Shown in pieces: positions 34,642 to 63,760 of a stretch of DNA of 64,000 nt. The notes under the pieces were generated by a model. The model saw nothing but the letters and a program-made list of their open reading frames with translations, was not told the origin of the DNA and searched no databases. Numbering within the stretch: the first letter of the stretch is position 1; each line of letters begins with the position of its first letter. The DNA lies in contig JBKBOT010000002.1 of the NCBI GenBank assembly GCA_046293555.1, forward strand, positions 15,765 to 79,764, in the 5' to 3' direction. Origin of the DNA: Pyrobaculum sp. (GTDB lineage Archaea > Thermoproteota > Thermoprotei > Thermoproteales > Thermoproteaceae). The position numbers and the translations under genes are program-made.

Positions 34642-35350
34642 GCAGGCCCTCTGGTATTTGGTGTATATTTTCGCCATATATCACAGCCCTCCCTGCAAGC
34701 CACAAGAGTGTGTCTACATGGAGGGGGGGTATGCCCGCGGCGTGAGCTATGTAGCTCCAGGTTGTCTGGATCTCTTTCTGTCTCCTCATGGCCTCTTCCG
34801 GCGGGATGTCTACAAGCTTTGCACACCATGTGAGATACGCCACCCTGTAGTCTACAGGTAGTGGTATCTCAAAAGGCAGCGGCCTATCCACACCTCTTGT
34901 ACACATATAGACATAGTTTAAGATCTTTATGGCAAATACCACAGTTTTTTGTGTCGGCGGCGATTTTAACGCCGTGGAGATATCCCCCCAGGTCTTCTTG
35001 AGGTTTTCTAGGTCTGGCACATAGCCACAGAGCTTTAAAACACGTCTCTTTCTACTCTCTAGCCCCAGCCTTAGGTATGGGCTGGCTTTTAGATAGGCAA
35101 CAAAGTCGCCGCATATATTGCCCACATGGCGGGTTGAAAAGTAGTCGCCAAAAAACCCCCAGTGTTCTTCCCCCTTTCCTACAAGCTTGTAGCTAACCAA
35201 GGCGTTTAACATGGCGAGTCTGGCCCCCGCCTCTTCGCCATGTCTCTTTGCCGCCTTACACACAGCCACGAATTGGGGGTCACGTCTCTCTAGGCTAAAC
35301 ACCGCATCCATGCCGAAGTGCCTAATGGCCTCAATGACCTCTCTTGACAT
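34589..35350 (-). CDS. archaeal 8-oxoguanine DNA glycosylase/AP lyase (AGOG)
   Basis: DPQF, NALVSY.L.GKGEEHW, QKTVVFAIK, IPLPVDYRV, IPPLHVDTLLW. Confidence 0.93.
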   Translation of the reverse strand: MSREVIEAIRHFGMDAVFSLERRDPQFVAVCKAAKRHGEEAGARLAMLNALVSYKLVGKGEEHWGFFGDYFSTRHVGNICGDFVAYLKASPYLRLGLESRKRRVLKLCGYVPDLENLKKTWGDISTALKSPPTQKTVVFAIKILNYVYMCTRGVDRPLPFEIPLPVDYRVAYLTWCAKLVDIPPEEAMRRQKEIQTTWSYIAHAAGIPPLHVDTLLWLAGRAVIYGENIHQIPEGLLKVFAKREECKYLSRSR

Positions 35351-56184: not shown

Positions 56185-57540
56185 GTGAGAGAGATAGGCA
56201 TTGTGGTCAGTGGTGTTACCATAGGGTCTATACCAGTCCAGATATACCGCGTTGCAGAACGTCACGCGTTAGAAGAACAGCTAGTGGGGGTGGTAGATAG
56301 GGAGAGAGGAGATGAGATAATCGTGGGGTTTCTACGCAGGATAACAAAACTCGAGCCCGTGATTAAAGACAAGGTGAGGACCCCATATGTGGACAAGCCA
56401 GAAATGATGGACCAAGGGGTGCTCCTCCCATATACATCTGCAATTGTAAAGCCCTATGTAAGCATCAAGGGGGGGAAGGTTTGTGAGGTGTCACATGTGG
56501 CCACGCCGGGGTCGAGAGTTTACCTACTCGACTCCTCTACCCTACAGGACGTATTTCTGGGAGACTACAGCCACGTGGGGTTTCATAAGTACTCCCTATG
56601 GCCTCTGCCTTTAGATATAAGCTATGTGACACACCACGTGGGGGTCTTCGGCGCCACGGGTATGGGCAAGTCCCGTCTCGTGAGGGCCTTAATTAACGAG
56701 CTAGCTTCGAGGGGGTATAAAGTGGTGGTTTTTGACCACACGGGGGTTGACTACGCCTCCCACTACCCCACAGTGGTGAGATCTTCTGAGGTAAAGATCC
56801 CCCCAAACGTGTTGGCCTCCGTGTTGGCAAAGGTGACCCAACTCTCGTGGCAGACATACGGCGACTACCTAGAAATTGCCACCATGACGTATGAGTCCAG
56901 TTGGTCAAAAAAGAGCTTTATCGACCACGTGAGGGGGACAATGAGGAGACTTGGCGCAAGAGACGCCACCGTGCAGAAAATGGAGTTATACCTAAGGCTT
57001 ATAGACGACGCCTTTTTTGAGGAGTTAAACAACAGGACCAAGACGCCAAGAGACATCTTGTCTATAGAAAACACGCCGGTGGTGGTAGACCTAAGTTACG
57101 ACACAGACCTCTCTGTAAAACAGGCAATAGTGGCTACAGTCATCGAGGCGGCTTGGGAGGAGGTAAAACGCCAGAAAACACAAAAAAAGACGGTATTTGT
57201 AATAGACGAGGCGCAGAACTACGCCCCGCAGAGCTGGACTATCTCTAAAGACGCCATAGAGACCACAGTGCGGGAGGGGAGGAAGTGGGGCCTCTCTATA
57301 ATATTAGCCAGCCAGAGGATTGTAGGAGATATAGACCCCTCCATAAGGGCAAATCTAGGCACCATATTTTTCTCACGGCTGTCGGCCCCCACAGACCTCA
57401 GAGAGATCTCCACGTACCTAGATCTAGCCGACGTAAACGAGAGCGTTTTGGCGCAACTACAGCCAAGAGAGTTTTTTGTGTCGGGCCTAATGAACCCCCT
57501 ACGCAAGCCGATCTTAATTAAAGTCCGCGACGTAGAGTAA
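56185..57540 (+). CDS. HerA/FtsK-family (DUF87) ATPase with HAS barrel
   Basis: HVGVFGATGMGKS, FDHTG.DY, IDEAQNYAP, REGRKWG, ASQR. Confidence 0.9.
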   Translation: MREIGIVVSGVTIGSIPVQIYRVAERHALEEQLVGVVDRERGDEIIVGFLRRITKLEPVIKDKVRTPYVDKPEMMDQGVLLPYTSAIVKPYVSIKGGKVCEVSHVATPGSRVYLLDSSTLQDVFLGDYSHVGFHKYSLWPLPLDISYVTHHVGVFGATGMGKSRLVRALINELASRGYKVVVFDHTGVDYASHYPTVVRSSEVKIPPNVLASVLAKVTQLSWQTYGDYLEIATMTYESSWSKKSFIDHVRGTMRRLGARDATVQKMELYLRLIDDAFFEELNNRTKTPRDILSIENTPVVVDLSYDTDLSVKQAIVATVIEAAWEEVKRQKTQKKTVFVIDEAQNYAPQSWTISKDAIETTVREGRKWGLSIILASQRIVGDIDPSIRANLGTIFFSRLSAPTDLREISTYLDLADVNESVLAQLQPREFFVSGLMNPLRKPILIKVRDVE

Positions 57541-57568
57541 GTATTTATTTCATAGCCCAGACATCTTC

Positions 57569-58726
57569 GTGGCCAGCGACCTTGATGCCGACTACTGGAT
57601 AGAACCTGAGCTGATGGTAGCCCTCAGACGTGACATAGAGAGACAGGTGGAAAAAATGGCAAAATTGGGAGAGGTGGTAAAAGAGGTTGCCTCTCTAAGG
57701 ACCGGGCTGGAGATTAAACAAATCGCGAAAACACGTGGCTTTGATGTATATGCGGTAGATTCCTCTTTTGCCCCACCGCTGGAGCTTGTAGGAGGATTAT
57801 TTACAGTCATCACATATGGCTATGTCGGCATTTCAAATGGCGTCCAGGATAAGTTTATTACAGGCACCCTGTATTTTAACGACGATGAAAATATCTCACG
57901 ATTCTCCTCGTTGCTAGAAAAGAGGCTGGCCACGAGGCTATTAGACGCAAAGGCGGGAGGCTATAAGCAGTTCGACTTGTTGATATTAGACGGGGAAATT
58001 GCCATACACCCGCTGCCGTATAACCTAGCCGCAGAGGGGGGACAACGCGAGGTTGTTAACCATGTGGTAGACAAGATGCTAAAAGCCGCATACATGGGCA
58101 AGACCACTGTAGTTGCTATCACAAAAAGGGTGAGGTCGAGATATCTCTCCGTGGCAGCGGGCCGATGTCTAGAGATAAACGACAAGGTGGCGACTTCATA
58201 CATCCTAAGGCCTGGAGAGTACTTCTCTTTGGGTAAACTACGGGAACTTCTGCCAAAGTGGATTAATATCCATTACCTAGAATGCAGCGGCGTAGATAGA
58301 GAGGAGGTGTTGAGATGTTATAAAGATGGAGTCTCGCCTAGAGACGCCAAGGCTGAGAAGTTGTGTAAAAGACTTAAAGAATTTAAGGAGAACTTCTCCG
58401 CCATCCTTAACTCGCCTAGATACCCCCACCTCCGCCATCTAGGCGACGTGGAGGTGATATACTATATGCCTCACGGCCACAAGACAGCCGTGCGTATAGA
58501 GGTACTCGACTTTGGCAACTACGGGGTAGAAGACATAGTGGCCTACCTGGCCTCCTCTACTTCCCCAACTACAGGCTATCCACAAGTCTTAGACGCGGTG
58601 GATCAATACGTGAGGATAAGCCCAGAGCTTGTCGAGGCCATTCTGACGGCAGTAACCACGAGAAGTCCAGAACTGGCCCTACTCATGTGGCCGACAAACA
58701 CGCAAAAAAGGCTAGTGAGGTTCTGA
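57569..58726 (+). CDS. NurA-family nuclease
   Basis: AVDSS, ILDGE, AITKR, GYPQVL..VD..VRI; directly downstream of the HerA-like ATPase. Confidence 0.85.
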   Translation: MASDLDADYWIEPELMVALRRDIERQVEKMAKLGEVVKEVASLRTGLEIKQIAKTRGFDVYAVDSSFAPPLELVGGLFTVITYGYVGISNGVQDKFITGTLYFNDDENISRFSSLLEKRLATRLLDAKAGGYKQFDLLILDGEIAIHPLPYNLAAEGGQREVVNHVVDKMLKAAYMGKTTVVAITKRVRSRYLSVAAGRCLEINDKVATSYILRPGEYFSLGKLRELLPKWINIHYLECSGVDREEVLRCYKDGVSPRDAKAEKLCKRLKEFKENFSAILNSPRYPHLRHLGDVEVIYYMPHGHKTAVRIEVLDFGNYGVEDIVAYLASSTSPTTGYPQVLDAVDQYVRISPELVEAILTAVTTRSPELALLMWPTNTQKRLVRF

Positions 58727-59313: not shown

Positions 59314-60261
59314 TCATAACGCAGGCGTCTTGCCGAAACCCTCTACGTCATATTCGTCCACATCTACTGGAAATATCCTAACCCCTATAACCCGCCGCTT
59401 TGTGGCAGAAATGGCGGCGAGGTCGTACAAAAGCCTTTTTACCTCACCCCACTCCCGTATCTTTACTGGGGCCATGTCTAAGCCCGGCACGCAGACCGCC
59501 GTGTAGCTAACAAGCTTGTCTAGATTTAAAGCGCCTTCACGTACTAACCTCTTTATCTCCTCGTCTTCAGCCACAGGCAACATCACCTCGTTGAAGCCAG
59601 TCTTCTTGACTCCAGCCCTCTCTATGGCTTGGTTTATTTTATAAATCGCGTCGTGTGACCCAAAAGCCCCAAGCCTGATGTTAAACAGCCTCTCCACAGC
59701 CTTTGCCACACTCTCGTGCCCCCATGGCGACAGGGAGCCGTCAACCCCTATGAACTCTACGCCGAGAGATGACGCCACCTGCATGCCGACTTCCTCCCCC
59801 CTCTTTAACACAGTCTCCACATCCTCTAGGCTGTTTAAATCATTTGGGTAGAGAAGCGAGATGGACACCCCGCGTCTTGTCGTAACAGAAAGCGGGAAAT
59901 ACGGCGAGTTGTACACCGCCCCGCCTAGAGACAACGCCACATAGCGGGCGAGGTGGACCTCGCCTACATGTACTCTCTTCAAAAATCTCATATATTCCAC
60001 CACGTCGCTTAACGAGGCAAAGACGCCATATTGAGAGACATAGCTATACACCTCGTCTGCGTCATAACGTAGGTGAAGAGCCGAGATGTACTTCACACCA
60101 AGATCTCTAAGTCGGGGGATTAACCTCCCCACGTCGCCTCTTGGCGAGATGGAGACTCTAACTGTGGCGGGATCCACAGCCTTGGCCACATCTAGGAACT
60201 TCTCCACTATGGAGAGATCTTCATCTCCCGTCAGATGTAGTGTAACTGACCGAACTTTCAT
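59314..60261 (-). CDS. DUF711 (PFL-like) family protein
   Basis: NSPYFP, GVDGSLSPW, GFNEVMLPVAED, VCVPGLDM. Confidence 0.85.
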   Translation of the reverse strand: MKVRSVTLHLTGDEDLSIVEKFLDVAKAVDPATVRVSISPRGDVGRLIPRLRDLGVKYISALHLRYDADEVYSYVSQYGVFASLSDVVEYMRFLKRVHVGEVHLARYVALSLGGAVYNSPYFPLSVTTRRGVSISLLYPNDLNSLEDVETVLKRGEEVGMQVASSLGVEFIGVDGSLSPWGHESVAKAVERLFNIRLGAFGSHDAIYKINQAIERAGVKKTGFNEVMLPVAEDEEIKRLVREGALNLDKLVSYTAVCVPGLDMAPVKIREWGEVKRLLYDLAAISATKRRVIGVRIFPVDVDEYDVEGFGKTPAL

Positions 60262-61154
60262 CAGTAATACCAGGTGGCTAGATGTAAATGTTCCGGCGGA
60301 TATCTAGACAGGGAGTTCGCCTTACACACATCCTTAAAGGGACATACGCCGCATTGGGGTCCTTCCCGCCTACATATAGACCTCCCGAAACTCCAAAGAA
60401 AGTCGTCAAGAAGGAAGGGATGTATATCTACAAACCTGCTGACAACCCTCCACCCAGTCTTCACAACCTCTCTCAGCCTCACGTCCTCCTCCCGTGTGGC
60501 CTCCACCCCGCTTTCTAAAAAGCCGTAGTCTATATCCACCACGCCCAGCCTATAGGCCACTCTCGAGAGGTGGTTATCTACAGCCACGTCTGCCTCTTCC
60601 ACATCTCTAAACTCCGCCAGCTTTCTGCCCCACAGAAACTTTGCTAACAACATGGCCTTTTTCCCCACTGGGTCCTCATAGGCTCTGATGTTTGCCAGCT
60701 CTATCTTTAACTTCTTTAAAGTATCTACAGAAAGCAAGGCCTCAAAGCCGCCTCGAGCCGCCACCTTTTTCCCCAAGTCTCTCAAGAGGTATACCCTCGT
60801 GTAGAAATCCCACACCTTTTTCTCACCTATGGCGAGAAGCCCTGTCGCATCTACAGGCGTTAAATTTGCCAGCCTTTCGGCCTTAAAAAACCCCCTGTCG
60901 TAAAGAATTCTCCCCAGCCTATATAGAGCGTCGGCGCCGTGGTAAAACCTCCCCCCTATCTCCCCCTCAAAGGCGTCCCAGGGGGTGGAGGTCCTGTGGT
61001 CTATGGCCACCATGGCTGTGAAATACGCCAGCTGGCTTTCTCTAGGGTCGCCGGGTGGGGGGTAGAAAAGGGGATTTAGGTAGTCCTGCCTTATTTCCAC
61101 CCTTTTTAAGACCTCTGCCACCTCTTCCGCCTTATCTACATCTATGGCGACCAC
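60261..61154 (-). CDS. QNG1/DUF2419-like HhH glycosylase with C-terminal EndoIII-type [4Fe-4S] motif
   Basis: YEDPVGKKAMLL, VAVDNHLSR, EEDVRLR, LDDFLWSFG, C-x6-C-x2-C-x5-C (CRREGPQCGVCPFKDVC); GTG at 61154. Confidence 0.7.
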   Translation of the reverse strand: MVAIDVDKAEEVAEVLKRVEIRQDYLNPLFYPPPGDPRESQLAYFTAMVAIDHRTSTPWDAFEGEIGGRFYHGADALYRLGRILYDRGFFKAERLANLTPVDATGLLAIGEKKVWDFYTRVYLLRDLGKKVAARGGFEALLSVDTLKKLKIELANIRAYEDPVGKKAMLLAKFLWGRKLAEFRDVEEADVAVDNHLSRVAYRLGVVDIDYGFLESGVEATREEDVRLREVVKTGWRVVSRFVDIHPFLLDDFLWSFGRSICRREGPQCGVCPFKDVCKANSLSRYPPEHLHLATWYY

Positions 61155-61194
61155 GTGACTTCTCAGACATATAAATAAATAACATGCCGAAGCC

Positions 61195-61572
61195 GTGAGA
61201 ACCTGTGTGGAGCTCAGAGGAAGCATCTCGGTGGCGCATAACCCCTCTTTTTCGCCAGAGTGGAGTAGAGTACATGGACACGACTATATAATAACTGTGG
61301 GCATATGTAAGGAGGGTTATGTCGAACTAGTGGTAGACGCGGGAGAAGCTGGAAAAAAGCTGGAGGCAGTGCTTACACATATGGATGGCAGATATCTCGC
61401 CTCAAGTGTGGAAAAAGACGTGCCGCAAGGCGCCTATGTGGTGCCTTGCAGCCTGCCGGGAGTTAGCGGCGAGTGTATTGCCAGACATGTTGCAGAACTT
61501 ATAGACGCCACCTGGGTGAGGGTATGTGAGAGCGGGCTTGGGGGGCCATGCTTCTATTTTGAAAAAACTTAA
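61195..61572 (+). CDS. queD: 6-carboxytetrahydropterin synthase / PTPS family (QueD-like)
   Basis: VAH, VHGHDY, SGECIA, VRVCES T-fold motifs. Confidence 0.8.
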   Translation: MRTCVELRGSISVAHNPSFSPEWSRVHGHDYIITVGICKEGYVELVVDAGEAGKKLEAVLTHMDGRYLASSVEKDVPQGAYVVPCSLPGVSGECIARHVAELIDATWVRVCESGLGGPCFYFEKT

Positions 61573-61594
61573 AAAGCTACACCGAGATGGCTAT

Positions 61595-61885
61595 ATGAAA
61601 CTAGTGGTGAAGTTTTTAGCTACCCTCTACGACATTACGGGGGTGTTAAAGACAGAGGTTGAAGTGCCAGACGGCATGACGGTTAGACAACTTATTGACC
61701 TGCTAGACGGGCGGTTTAAGATTAAGAAAGAGCTGCTAGACGAGGGGGGCCAGCTCAAGCCTATGTACAACGTCTTGGTTAACGGGAGGGCCATAGAGTG
61801 GCTCGGGGGGCTGGAGACAAGGCTGAAAGACGGCGACGAGGTGGTCTTTATCCCCCCGGCGGCTGGCGGCACGGATCCCACGTAA
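61595..61885 (+). CDS. ubiquitin-like beta-grasp protein (MoaD/SAMP/Urm1 family) with C-terminal GG-TDPT
   Basis: VKFLATL, VLVNGR, LKDGDEVVFIPPAAGG then TDPT before the stop. Confidence 0.9.
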   Translation: MKLVVKFLATLYDITGVLKTEVEVPDGMTVRQLIDLLDGRFKIKKELLDEGGQLKPMYNVLVNGRAIEWLGGLETRLKDGDEVVFIPPAAGGTDPT

Positions 61886-62280: not shown

Positions 62281-63147
62281 TTATAACAACTCGTAGCGGC
62301 CGTCGGGATACACCCTGGCGCCCGCCCGCCTGGTTGCCCAACAGGAAAACACAATGCCTAGCGAAAATGCGGCCGGGTGTCTATATGCATATTCGATATG
62401 TACGTCAAGCGCGGTGAACCTGCCCCCCACCCCATGTGTCCCTATGCCCAAGGCGTTTATTGCTTTTAACAACTTTTCCTCTATTTCCGCAATTTCTGGC
62501 TCTGGGTGTCTAGAGCCCACAGGCCTTAAAACCGCCGCCTTTTTGGCAAGTCTGGCGGCTATATCTACAGAAGGCCCGACGCCAATCCCCACGACCACTG
62601 GAGGACAGGGCATGGGCCCCGCCTCCACCACAGCCTCTAGCACCAATCTGGGCATTTCCCTCATGGCGACGCCAGGCGGTAGAGTGAAGACACGGCTGGG
62701 GAGCTCGGTGCCGCCCCCCTTTGGGATATAGTAAAACTCTAGGTAATCCCCGTCAAATAGCTCTACGTCAAACCACGGGGCCCCGGCTCCGGTGTTATCG
62801 CCAGGGTTTTTCTCGTGGAATGGATGTACCGTGTTTGGCCTGAGGGGTAACTCTTGCGTCACCTCGCGGACGGCTCTAGTCAAAATGTCGTAAATTTTGC
62901 TTCTAACTGGAAACCCGTCGCCTATCTTTAGGTAAAAGTTGGGGAAGCCTGTGTCTTGACATACCGCGGCTTTCTCCCCGGCGGCTAGCTCTATGTTTTT
63001 TAGTATTGCCTCGAGCTGTATTTTCGCAGCCTCGCTGTCTTCAATCATGTGGGCCCTCTTTAGAGAGCTAGTTATGTCAAACGCCGGGGAGATGCTGGCG
63101 CGGATCACAGCCTCTTTGGCGGCCTTAAGTAAAATCTCTTCAAGCAT
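62281..63147 (-). CDS. class I fumarate hydratase (tartrate dehydratase family) alpha subunit
   Basis: CQDTG, LRPN, PKGGGTE, PCPP, SCWATRR; ATG at 63147. Confidence 0.92.
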   Translation of the reverse strand: MLEEILLKAAKEAVIRASISPAFDITSSLKRAHMIEDSEAAKIQLEAILKNIELAAGEKAAVCQDTGFPNFYLKIGDGFPVRSKIYDILTRAVREVTQELPLRPNTVHPFHEKNPGDNTGAGAPWFDVELFDGDYLEFYYIPKGGGTELPSRVFTLPPGVAMREMPRLVLEAVVEAGPMPCPPVVVGIGVGPSVDIAARLAKKAAVLRPVGSRHPEPEIAEIEEKLLKAINALGIGTHGVGGRFTALDVHIEYAYRHPAAFSLGIVFSCWATRRAGARVYPDGRYELL

Positions 63148-63190
63148 GTCCCATCCCCAAATGTAATTAATATATTTTCTAATTGATACT

Positions 63191-63760
63191 ATGCCCATAT
63201 ACCATCTAAAAACCCCCCTCTCGAAAGAAGACGTGGAGCCCCTCCGCGTGGGCGACACGCTTTATATATCCGGGATAGTAGTTGCGGCTAGAGACTCGGC
63301 GCATAGACGCATGCTCGAACTAGGGCCTCCTATAGATCTCAAAGGCGGCGTTATATATCACGCAGGGCCTGTGGCCAGAAGGGAGCCGGCTGGCTGGGAG
63401 ATTATAAGCATGGGGCCTACCACAAGCGCCAGGATGGAAGCCTTCCAGGCTGAAGTTATTGAGAGATTTGGCGTAAGGCTTGTGGTGGGGAAGGGCGGCA
63501 TGGGGAAAAAGACGGCAGAGGCGATGAAGAGACATGTGGCCGCCTACGCCATATTTACGGGGGGAGCTGGAGTTCTGGCGGCTAAGGCCATCAGGAGGGT
63601 AGTTGACGTATACTGGCTAGACTTAGGGATGGCGGAAGCCATGTGGGTTCTAGAAGTGGAGAACTTCGGCCCCCTTACGGTGATGATTGACCCCACTGGG
63701 AGAAATTACTACGAGGAGGCCAGGGAGGAGGCCAGGAGGAGGATTTCAGAAATCCTCTAA
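63191..63760 (+). CDS. class I fumarate hydratase beta subunit
   Basis: ARDSAH, YHAGP, GPTTSARM, GKGG, LGMAEA, FGPL. Confidence 0.93.
   Translation: MPIYHLKTPLSKEDVEPLRVGDTLYISGIVVAARDSAHRRMLELGPPIDLKGGVIYHAGPVARREPAGWEIISMGPTTSARMEAFQAEVIERFGVRLVVGKGGMGKKTAEAMKRHVAAYAIFTGGAGVLAAKAIRRVVDVYWLDLGMAEAMWVLEVENFGPLTVMIDPTGRNYYEEAREEARRRISEIL

Follow-up and report, generated by a model that had tools for sequence, protein, structure and literature searches.

What does a relative of the queuosine-salvage enzyme Qng1 do in an archaeon? The question is raised by a three-gene locus within a 64,000-nucleotide stretch of a Pyrobaculum sp. genome (contig JBKBOT010000002.1, positions 15,765 to 79,764; hereafter the window). 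Qng1 (DUF2419, PF10343) frees the base queuine from queuosine-5'-monophosphate, a nucleotide that accumulates in QNG1-knockout cells. The enzyme is known only from queuine salvage in eukaryotes and in some bacteria, and archaea are not known to use queuosine. The central gene of the locus encodes a 297-residue protein (60261..61154, minus strand; GTG start at 61152-61154, TGA stop at 60261-60263). On one side it diverges from a gene for a 125-residue PTPS/QueD-like protein (61195..61572, plus strand, GTG start at 61195) across an AT-rich intergenic region of 40 bp (61155..61194). On the other, its stop codon overlaps, in a TGATG, the start of a gene for a 315-residue DUF711 protein of the short, UPF0210-like type (59314..60261, minus strand). 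A first-pass annotation had called the central gene an iron-sulfur Qng1-like glycosylase head-to-head with queD, and the features that it named can all be found: the 40-bp region, the TGATG coupling, the motifs DPVGKKAML, VAVDNH, REEDVRLRE and LLDDFLWSFG, and a C-x6-C-x2-C-x5-C cluster motif formed by C262, C269, C272 and C278. Judged by its predicted structure, the protein belongs to the Qng1 superfamily and has either gained or retained a probable 4Fe-4S loop of EndoIII type. It probably cleaves a guanine-like nucleotide other than that of queuosine, as part of a so far unstudied enzyme family.

The longest open reading frame as listed (60261..61226, minus strand) runs into the PTPS-like gene; since homologues begin at M/V-x-x-IDVD, we took the GTG of 61152-61154 as the true start. 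The query, P0001, is the 297-residue product plus one extra leading His, and its numbering is used throughout. Among 1677 candidates, 211 homologues were retrieved at E ≤ 1e-3 (best 1.4e-181), a family well beyond chance, with hosts that include Pyrobaculum, Thermoproteus, Vulcanisaeta, Thermocladium, Desulfurococcus, Staphylothermus, Ignisphaera, Acidilobales and Korarchaeota. Existing labels of its members read "iron-sulfur cluster loop" or "N-glycosylase/DNA lyase". Taken singly, P0001 scored 15.5 bits against the Pfam AGOG profile (PF09171; cut-off 26.1) over residues 190-261, a segment that includes the catalytic Asp together with the D...W region, E = 0.09 against the EndoIII Fe-S motif of Pfam and 19 bits against mutY of NCBIfam, while its best single-sequence match in PDB was EndoIII (E = 0.02). 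It had no match to HhH-GPD (PF00730), nor to Q_salvage (PF10343) at E ≤ 10, and PF10343 had no match in the genome either. When 30 diverse family members were scanned singly against Pfam (counting matches at E ≤ 1 for PF10343 and PF00730), AGOG was matched by 26 of them (best E = 1.6e-8), Q_salvage by 16 (best E = 3.7e-9), the EndoIII Fe-S motif PF10576 by 12 and HhH-GPD by three (best E = 0.012).

Profiles built from the family separate the two resemblances. The whole-family profile matches Qng1 across positions 3-276 and reaches ROS1, EndoIII and MutY mainly via the Cys loop (EndoIII and MutY over positions 269-297). With the Cys loop cut off, a 15-sequence profile found Qng1 as its sole significant match in PDB (E = 1.5e-5, positions 4-272 of 273), followed by AGOG at E = 0.1. 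In the profile alignment, the motifs of P0001 pair with YKRAQIL, FADYKVPQ, EEVEIR and VDWLLWDEG of Qng1.

Structure prediction agreed with the loop-free profile. An AlphaFold2 model computed from a 30-sequence alignment reached a predicted local distance difference test (pLDDT) score of 94.8 and a predicted template modelling (pTM) score of 0.92. The first ten PDB chains returned by Foldseek were all Qng1/DUF2419 (E = 6.5e-11 to 6.5e-9; template modelling (TM) score 0.76-0.80, root-mean-square deviation (RMSD) 2.5-4.3 Å), with EndoIII, MutY and AGOG next at a TM score of about 0.5. In VIA-align, model residues 1..298 superposed on residues 22..323 of untagged Qng1 (7uk3; further structures are 7u07, 7u91 and 7ugk), the final residue of both chains included (Z = 29.4, RMSD = 2.4 Å over 271 of 298 residues, 22-23% identity). 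The other Z-scores were 16.9 for EndoIII (1orp), 16.3 for Pa-AGOG (1xqo), about 15.5 for MutY and 14.6 for MIG (1kea). In the ESM Atlas (own model), the nearest named cluster was "Queuosine 5'-phosphate N-glycosylase/hydrolase" (TM 0.91), ahead of clusters in which a PfkB kinase is fused to Q_salvage (0.86-0.87), AGOG (0.73) and EndoIII (0.61-0.63). According to the model, the protein thus groups with Qng1 along its whole chain. In a comparison fixed beforehand it did not group with ordinary Nth or MIG enzymes and sided with Qng1 by Foldseek, VIA-align and profiles alike, as the first-pass annotation had supposed. Membership of the ordinary Nth, MIG or AGOG families is ruled out by the Z-scores and Pfam cut-offs. 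Pa-AGOG shares the host lineage and a weak profile match with the protein, yet its Z-score is low and the match stays below the cut-off. AGOG enzymes are not known to have a Cys4 loop. Moreover, the protein is not the organism's AGOG, since a canonical one is present in the window (34664-35332, minus strand, equivalent to G000:C2:50428-51096; PF09171, 240.3 bits).

The likeness to Qng1 extends to the active site, for which we read residue correspondences and the pocket from alignments and took residue roles from the description of StQng1 (PMC9881137). In that enzyme D231 is the nucleophile and K199 contacts the ribose 2'- and 3'-OH; I203 and W302 sandwich the 7-deazaguanine, and D298 reads the guanine N1/N2 edge, keeping out adenine; E267, H316 and Y323 anchor a C-terminal tail whose carboxylate touches the ribose 3'-OH, and tagging the C-terminus inactivates Qng1 (PMC9881137). 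The catalytic pair is kept as D194, within an invariant VDNH (codon at 60576..60578, minus strand, like all codons given below), and K166, the helix-hairpin-helix (HhH) lysine, which together with K167 (codons at 60660..60665) corresponds to K199 and R200. Both D194 and K166 are invariant in 30 of 30 family members. Across the superfamily, where 273 proteins were aligned to the family hidden Markov model and 248 cover the core, Asp is found at position 194 in 244 of the 248, and Lys at 166 and 167 in 246 and 247. The base clamp is likewise retained as L170, W255 and D251, all invariant in the family; the last two lie in the segment D251-D252-F-L-W255-S (60390..60407), in which D252 takes the place of Qng1 W299. 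D225, H290 and Y298 stand for the three tail anchors and are invariant or nearly so. The tail itself (E289-H290...T-W-Y-Y298; 60264..60293) corresponds to that of Qng1, ending at 30 of 30 loci in T-[WFY]-[YWF]-Y (TW(Y/W)Y or a near variant of it), and in the superfamily 227 of 248 proteins end in Tyr and 15 in Phe. By analogy with Qng1, the terminal Tyr carboxylate would sit in the active site.

The two enzymes part company where the 7-substituent is received. In Qng1, the cyclopentenediol of queuine occupies a hydrophobic pocket of W48, Y93, W94, W299, P46 and H53 (PMC9881137). In the archaeal family Y93, W94 and W299 are replaced by A75, D76 and D252, all invariant, and the resulting signature, with its DHR, ADD and DNH elements, is the family's own: D-H-R...A-D...D-N-H...D-D..W-G-R plus four Cys. 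With these three invariant residues in place of the hydrophobic pocket, the foremost candidate is a guanine-type base whose 7-substituent is small and cationic. Among the modified guanines in the tRNA of these organisms that leave the N1/N2 edge free, archaeosine, whose 7-group is a formamidinium, is the most abundant known.

Given this acidic pocket and the pairing of the gene with a QueD-like gene in Thermoproteaceae, our leading candidate for the substrate is a nucleotide of archaeosine or preQ0. We tentatively read the protein as a mononucleotide N-glycosylase of Qng1 type for such a cationic 7-deazaguanine nucleotide. Its substrate would be a free 5'-mononucleotide, or a nucleoside with a free 3'-OH, that arises from RNA turnover, and not duplex DNA; archaeosine 5'-monophosphate and the nucleotides of the precursors preQ0 and preQ1 are the candidates. 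The ribose would be held by K166 together with the terminal carboxylate at Y298, the base sandwiched by L170 and W255, and the guanine N1/N2 edge read by D251, while A75, D76 and D252, in place of the cyclopentenediol pocket, would receive the 7-substituent. With D194 as nucleophile or oxocarbenium stabiliser, hydrolysis of the N-glycosidic bond would yield the free base and ribose-5-phosphate, and the freed 7-deazaguanine would be recycled or cleared from the nucleotide pool. The PfkB nucleoside/sugar kinase plus Q_salvage clusters found nearby in the ESM Atlas fit a nucleotide substrate; they have a similar Qng1-like fold but are kinase-fused, whereas the archaeal protein stands alone.

Several observations weigh against this reading, and they are given here and in the following paragraphs together with the alternatives on which they bear. 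P0001 lies below every curated threshold of Pfam and NCBIfam, reaching no Pfam cut-off. One departure from Qng1 is the Cys4 loop (C262-x6-C269-x2-C272-x5-C278; 60324..60374), a 17-residue insertion between G258-R259 and the tail that Qng1 lacks. All four Cys are invariant in the 30 aligned members, the family profile matches EndoIII and MutY over the loop, and the model aligns with EndoIII through residue 285, so that the loop falls where the EndoIII cluster lies; it probably binds a 4Fe-4S cluster, as the motif suggests. In EndoIII and MutY, such a loop contacts the DNA backbone, and these enzymes also share with the archaeal protein a catalytic Asp in a VD.H..R..RLG context. The protein might then be a glycosylase of DNA, or of polymer RNA, for a damaged or modified guanine (8-oxoguanine, formamidopyrimidine-guanine, alkylguanine or a viral 7-deazaguanine), its Qng1-like scaffold flipping the base out and its iron-sulfur loop gripping the backbone as in EndoIII and MutY. 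We consider such an activity somewhat unlikely.

The fold lies far nearer to Qng1 (Z = 29.4 against at most 16.9), even though the D251...W255 stretch belongs to the base-recognition region that the AGOG profile matches in most of the members scanned. The model contains the Qng1-specific elements, namely the β2-β3 hairpin (64-67, 70-73), β1/β6 (4-5, 207-208), an extra helix (211-216) and the C-terminal tail, all of which EndoIII and MutY lack. In Qng1 these elements fill and block the DNA cleft (PMC9881137). As judged from secondary structure and alignment, the inter-lobe cleft of the model thus has cleft-filling elements of the Qng1 type, and the active-site tail is retained. The hairpin inside the HhH, on the other hand, is three residues shorter than in Qng1 and is not assigned as a hairpin by DSSP, so the cleft may not close as fully as that of Qng1. 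Because the elements that fill the cleft are mostly retained, excision of deazaguanine from DNA, which the first-pass annotation had offered as a second option, appears less likely than nucleotide cleavage. The hairpin before K166 is acidic, with E161 and D162 invariant, instead of the phosphate-binding LPGVG type, the form compared with here being that of EndoIII and MutY. Net charge, used as a proxy for DNA binding, gave a mixed outcome: Thermoproteaceae members are near neutral (isoelectric point 6.1-7.1, compared with 9.3 for the AGOG of the Pyrobaculum genome), and many members outside that family are basic, with a median of 8.2 over all members.

Gene neighbourhoods and fusions also bear on a polymer substrate. 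In five of seven loci from families f14, f23 and f55 (Desulfurococcales-type; L047-L050, L053, L071 and L075), the gene directly downstream encodes PBP2 (PolB1-binding protein 2; PF22511, E = 5.3e-14 for the representative), and one Chloroflexota relative carries a fused GIY-YIG nuclease. Both argue for work on DNA, as does the "N-glycosylase/DNA lyase" label of some members. A TIM barrel of the xylose isomerase/AP_endonuc_2 type lies downstream in five loci of families f52 and f34. It was rejected as an EndoIV-type apurinic/apyrimidinic endonuclease, since it scored 25 bits with nfo, where the cut-off is 129.65; its best NCBIfam match was CbiR at 37.9 bits. Against a polymer substrate stand, further, the canonical AGOG that the genome already possesses and the kinase-fused relatives. 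A reading of the locus as a defence system was dropped after PADLOC matched none of the three genes, and among viral contigs 12 pattern matches yielded no confirmed relative of the glycosylase; both results also count against a DNA glycosylase.

A second set of observations concerns the chemistry of the reaction. In StQng1, the role of general acid is ascribed to N72, while F75 and Y232 stack on the ribose and K233 and Q306 are phosphate ligands (PMC9881137). The archaeal family has an invariant D53-H54-R55 for N72-F73-C74, T/L56 and N195 for F75 and Y232, and H196 and R259 for K233 and Q306. Going by these replacements, an Asp in place of N72 and the missing F75 and Y232 make leaving-group and ribose chemistry unlike those of Qng1, which also counts against a cationic 7-deazaguanine nucleotide as the substrate. 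Qng1 has no residue that protonates N7, since its substrate is a 7-deaza base (PMC9881137), and D53, at the N72 position, could protonate N7 of a normal purine. The protein could accordingly combine Qng1-type mononucleotide chemistry with a guanine nucleotide that is not 7-deaza, such as 8-oxo-GMP/dGMP, GMP or another tRNA-derived modified GMP (guanosine monophosphate) with a free N1/N2 edge, and serve in pool sanitation or purine salvage. All the fold and active-site evidence applies equally to such a substrate, and HAD phosphatases, phosphoribosyltransferases, a phosphoribosyl pyrophosphate synthase and a TRM5/TYW2 methyltransferase occur near the glycosylase in smaller sets of loci, the first three counting in favour of such a substrate. 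We hold this alternative to be unlikely; it leaves unexplained both the pairing with a PTPS/QueD-like gene in Thermoproteaceae and the two invariant Asp at the 7-substituent site.

The distribution of the gene speaks to the same choice. In 401 sampled Thermoproteota genomes, the glycosylase is single-copy in 98. Carriers make up 20 of 22 genomes in Thermoproteaceae (f1, the family of the source genome) besides the source genome itself, 12 of 12 in f2, 15 of 16 in f14, 12 of 12 in f23, five of five in f28 and four of four in f25; the gene is absent from f3 (0/13), f12 (0/56) and f29 (0/15). Co-occurrence with 7-deazaguanine synthesis, which had been put forward as a check on the proposed role, did not materialise: QueC is found in 53 of 98 carriers and 156 of 303 non-carriers (uncorrected for kinship), and f12 and f29 have QueC in all sampled genomes and no glycosylase. 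A phyletic link to de novo preQ0 synthesis was therefore discarded, and the lack of association with QueC fits a base that is not 7-deaza. For QueD, PF01242 under-detects divergent Thermoproteaceae copies (it missed G000, G027, G067 and G220), and its counts serve as family tallies only. The converse idea, that salvage is needed where QueC is missing, fared no better. Among QueC-less genomes tested, arcTGT is present in five of five carriers and also in four of five non-carriers, a pattern that does not discriminate. Because QueC-less arcTGT genomes exist with and without the glycosylase, the enzyme is not required for a salvage lifestyle.

For the PTPS-like neighbour, the first-pass label queD is plausible only. 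The protein passes PF01242 (27.2 bits; cut-off 22.4) and is the sole COG0720/PF01242 member in a genome that is 96% complete; against NCBIfam QueD it scores 25.6 bits, below the cut-off of 89.25. We aligned six Thermoproteaceae copies with five canonical crenarchaeal QueDs. All six keep the three Zn-ligand His (AH, HGH) and the C-terminal Glu. In all six, the Cys of C-x3-HGH is replaced by W, V or K, and the D-H dyad by D-G or H-G. In QueD, both this Cys and the dyad His are canonical catalytic residues. In G262, the one congener genome without the PTPS-like neighbour, a canonical QueD (111 bits) is encoded on a different contig; from this single contrast, and from its being the sole family member in its genome, the PTPS-like gene may still encode a working QueD. 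As a separate observation, the Thermoproteaceae PTPS-like proteins (that of the window and those of L013, L015, L021, L022 and L034) carry new conserved cysteines in TCV, VPC, GEC, VCES and PCFY. The Pyrobaculum genome also has matches to QueC (128 bits) and arcTGT (237 bits). Its best QueE-like match, to TIGR03365 (56.9 bits; G000:C5:17071-17286), covers only profile positions 2-77 and contains one in-frame TGA, which may point to a frameshifted or split gene or to a fault in the assembly.

Linkage of the glycosylase to this gene is tight within Thermoproteaceae and stops at its border. All 18 loci retrieved there, 12 from genus g1 and six from g2, have the PTPS-like gene divergent from the glycosylase; a nineteenth genome, G262, has the glycosylase without PTPS-like, DUF711 or other usual neighbours, bringing the linkage to 18 of 19 loci in two genera. 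DUF711 follows the glycosylase in 17 of the 18. Flanking MoaD and flavin reductase genes are kept in g1 only, so the core trio outlasts its flanks. Beyond the family, no PTPS-like gene was seen near the glycosylase in any of 12 loci with 1.5-kb flanks or of 40 loci with 6-kb flanks from about 20 families, and the PF01242 matches listed for those genomes sit on other contigs or far off. The linkage to queD claimed at the outset thus stands for Thermoproteaceae and fails elsewhere. Within the family, the 40-bp divergent region (61155-61194), which includes catataaataaataacat, is a probable bidirectional promoter to judge from its layout. Were the neighbour a functional, non-canonical QueD, this promoter would couple the making of a deazaguanine base de novo to its recycling in Thermoproteaceae. 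It is doubtful, though conceivable, that the whole of this picture holds, with the Fe-S Qng1 homologue of hyperthermophilic Thermoproteota as the first archaeal enzyme to recycle or clear 7-deazaguanines, cleaving archaeosine or preQ0 nucleotides set free when tRNA is turned over, and as a living intermediate between EndoIII/MutY and Qng1, co-regulated with a non-canonical QueD.

The other neighbour suggests a further possibility, that the protein is no nucleic-acid hydrolase at all and binds a base or nucleotide, or senses redox state, with DUF711 as its partner. DUF711 is found in 84 of 98 carriers of the glycosylase and in 82 of 303 non-carriers (uncorrected for kinship, which confounds these counts), and adjoins the gene in Thermoproteaceae and, by coordinates, in five of five genomes of genus g5 in f2; among the 40 loci from outside Thermoproteaceae it does so in one. 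DUF711 itself has no assigned function: the published papers that we found on DUF711, UPF0210 or COG2848 give none, and ECOD groups it with the ten-stranded barrels of RNR and PFL (PMC4390871). A role in binding or sensing nevertheless seems improbable to us, as it would leave a catalytic Asp and Lys that are near-universal in the superfamily without a task. The DUF711 protein of the locus matches PF05167 at E = 3.3e-32 over the C-terminal half of the profile alone. Two types of DUF711 protein can be told apart: a full-length one (about 486 bits over the whole profile, for example G000:C59:753-1967) and a short, divergent one (about 110 bits, positions ~235-412). It is the latter that adjoins the glycosylase, and it occurs widely in Thermoproteota.

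Beyond the archaeal family, a profile search of the superfamily over 1.84 billion representatives returned 1267 proteins with E ≤ 1e-3, of which 531 reached E ≤ 1e-10 and 170 reached E ≤ 1e-30. R121, D162, P163, K166, K167, D194, R229, W255 and R259 are near-universal among those aligned. A second Cys4 subgroup (among P0186-P0265) carries the signature C-H-Q-T-W...D-Y-H...H-Y..W-F-R, in which the guanine-edge Asp is a His, and probably differs in base specificity. A third group of metagenomic proteins of about 700 residues (P0156, P0160, P0165, P0168, P0174, P0189, P0194, P0200, P0201, P0207, P0208 and P0238) has no Cys loop and shares D53, H54, D76, D251 and D252 with the archaeal family; membrane helices are predicted in its N-terminal domain, whose core looks like RecA/KaiC and matched no Pfam family. 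When 24 relatives that were long or fused were scanned against Pfam, Q_salvage was recognised in 13, and the N-terminal domains of the others were mostly without a family. Apart from the one GIY-YIG nuclease, the fusions comprised one radical SAM domain and one sub-threshold integrase. A search for longer forms of the glycosylase itself returned P0142 alone. With at least 531 representatives at E ≤ 1e-10 and several pocket signatures, the superfamily may well comprise many nucleotide glycosylases, each with its own base specificity, that await classification.

In the full-text library that we searched, with some papers judged from titles or abstracts, we found none on an archaeal or iron-sulfur Qng1 homologue, and none, judged from titles and abstracts, on a glycosylase that salvages archaeosine. 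The main text of the Qng1 study mentions archaea for AGOG only (PMC9881137). A transporter encoded beside bacterial qng1 moves preQ0 and preQ1, which the authors of that study had not expected (PMC11130926). What is new here is a Qng1-superfamily member that fails the queuosine-specificity features and adds an Fe-S loop. Nearly a quarter of the Thermoproteota genomes sampled (98/401) carry a conserved relative that keeps the guanine-type core and joins to it an acidic pocket and an iron-sulfur loop like that of DNA glycosylases. If the substrate is an archaeosine or preQ0 nucleotide, the family opens the turnover of 7-deazaguanines in archaea, for which the searched literature describes no enzyme; if it is DNA, the family would be a new class of glycosylase on the Qng1 scaffold. 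Either way, proteins now labelled "iron-sulfur cluster loop" or "N-glycosylase/DNA lyase" can be re-labelled, and a cheap and precise biochemical test is on offer.

Around the trio, the window holds a HerA (DUF87) and NurA pair just upstream of the DUF711 gene (56185-58726, plus strand), a MoaD/SAMP1-like gene, a flavin reductase gene and a split class I fumarase. The longest open reading frame of the MoaD/SAMP1-like gene (61526-61885, plus strand) runs 47 bp into the 3' end of the PTPS-like gene; its true start is probably an internal ATG (MKLVVKF), because homologues are 93-101 residues long. The fumarase alpha and beta genes are divergent (62281-63258, minus strand, and 63191-63760, plus strand) and not in tandem, and as their longest reading frames share 68 bp at the 5' ends, at least one true start must lie further inside.

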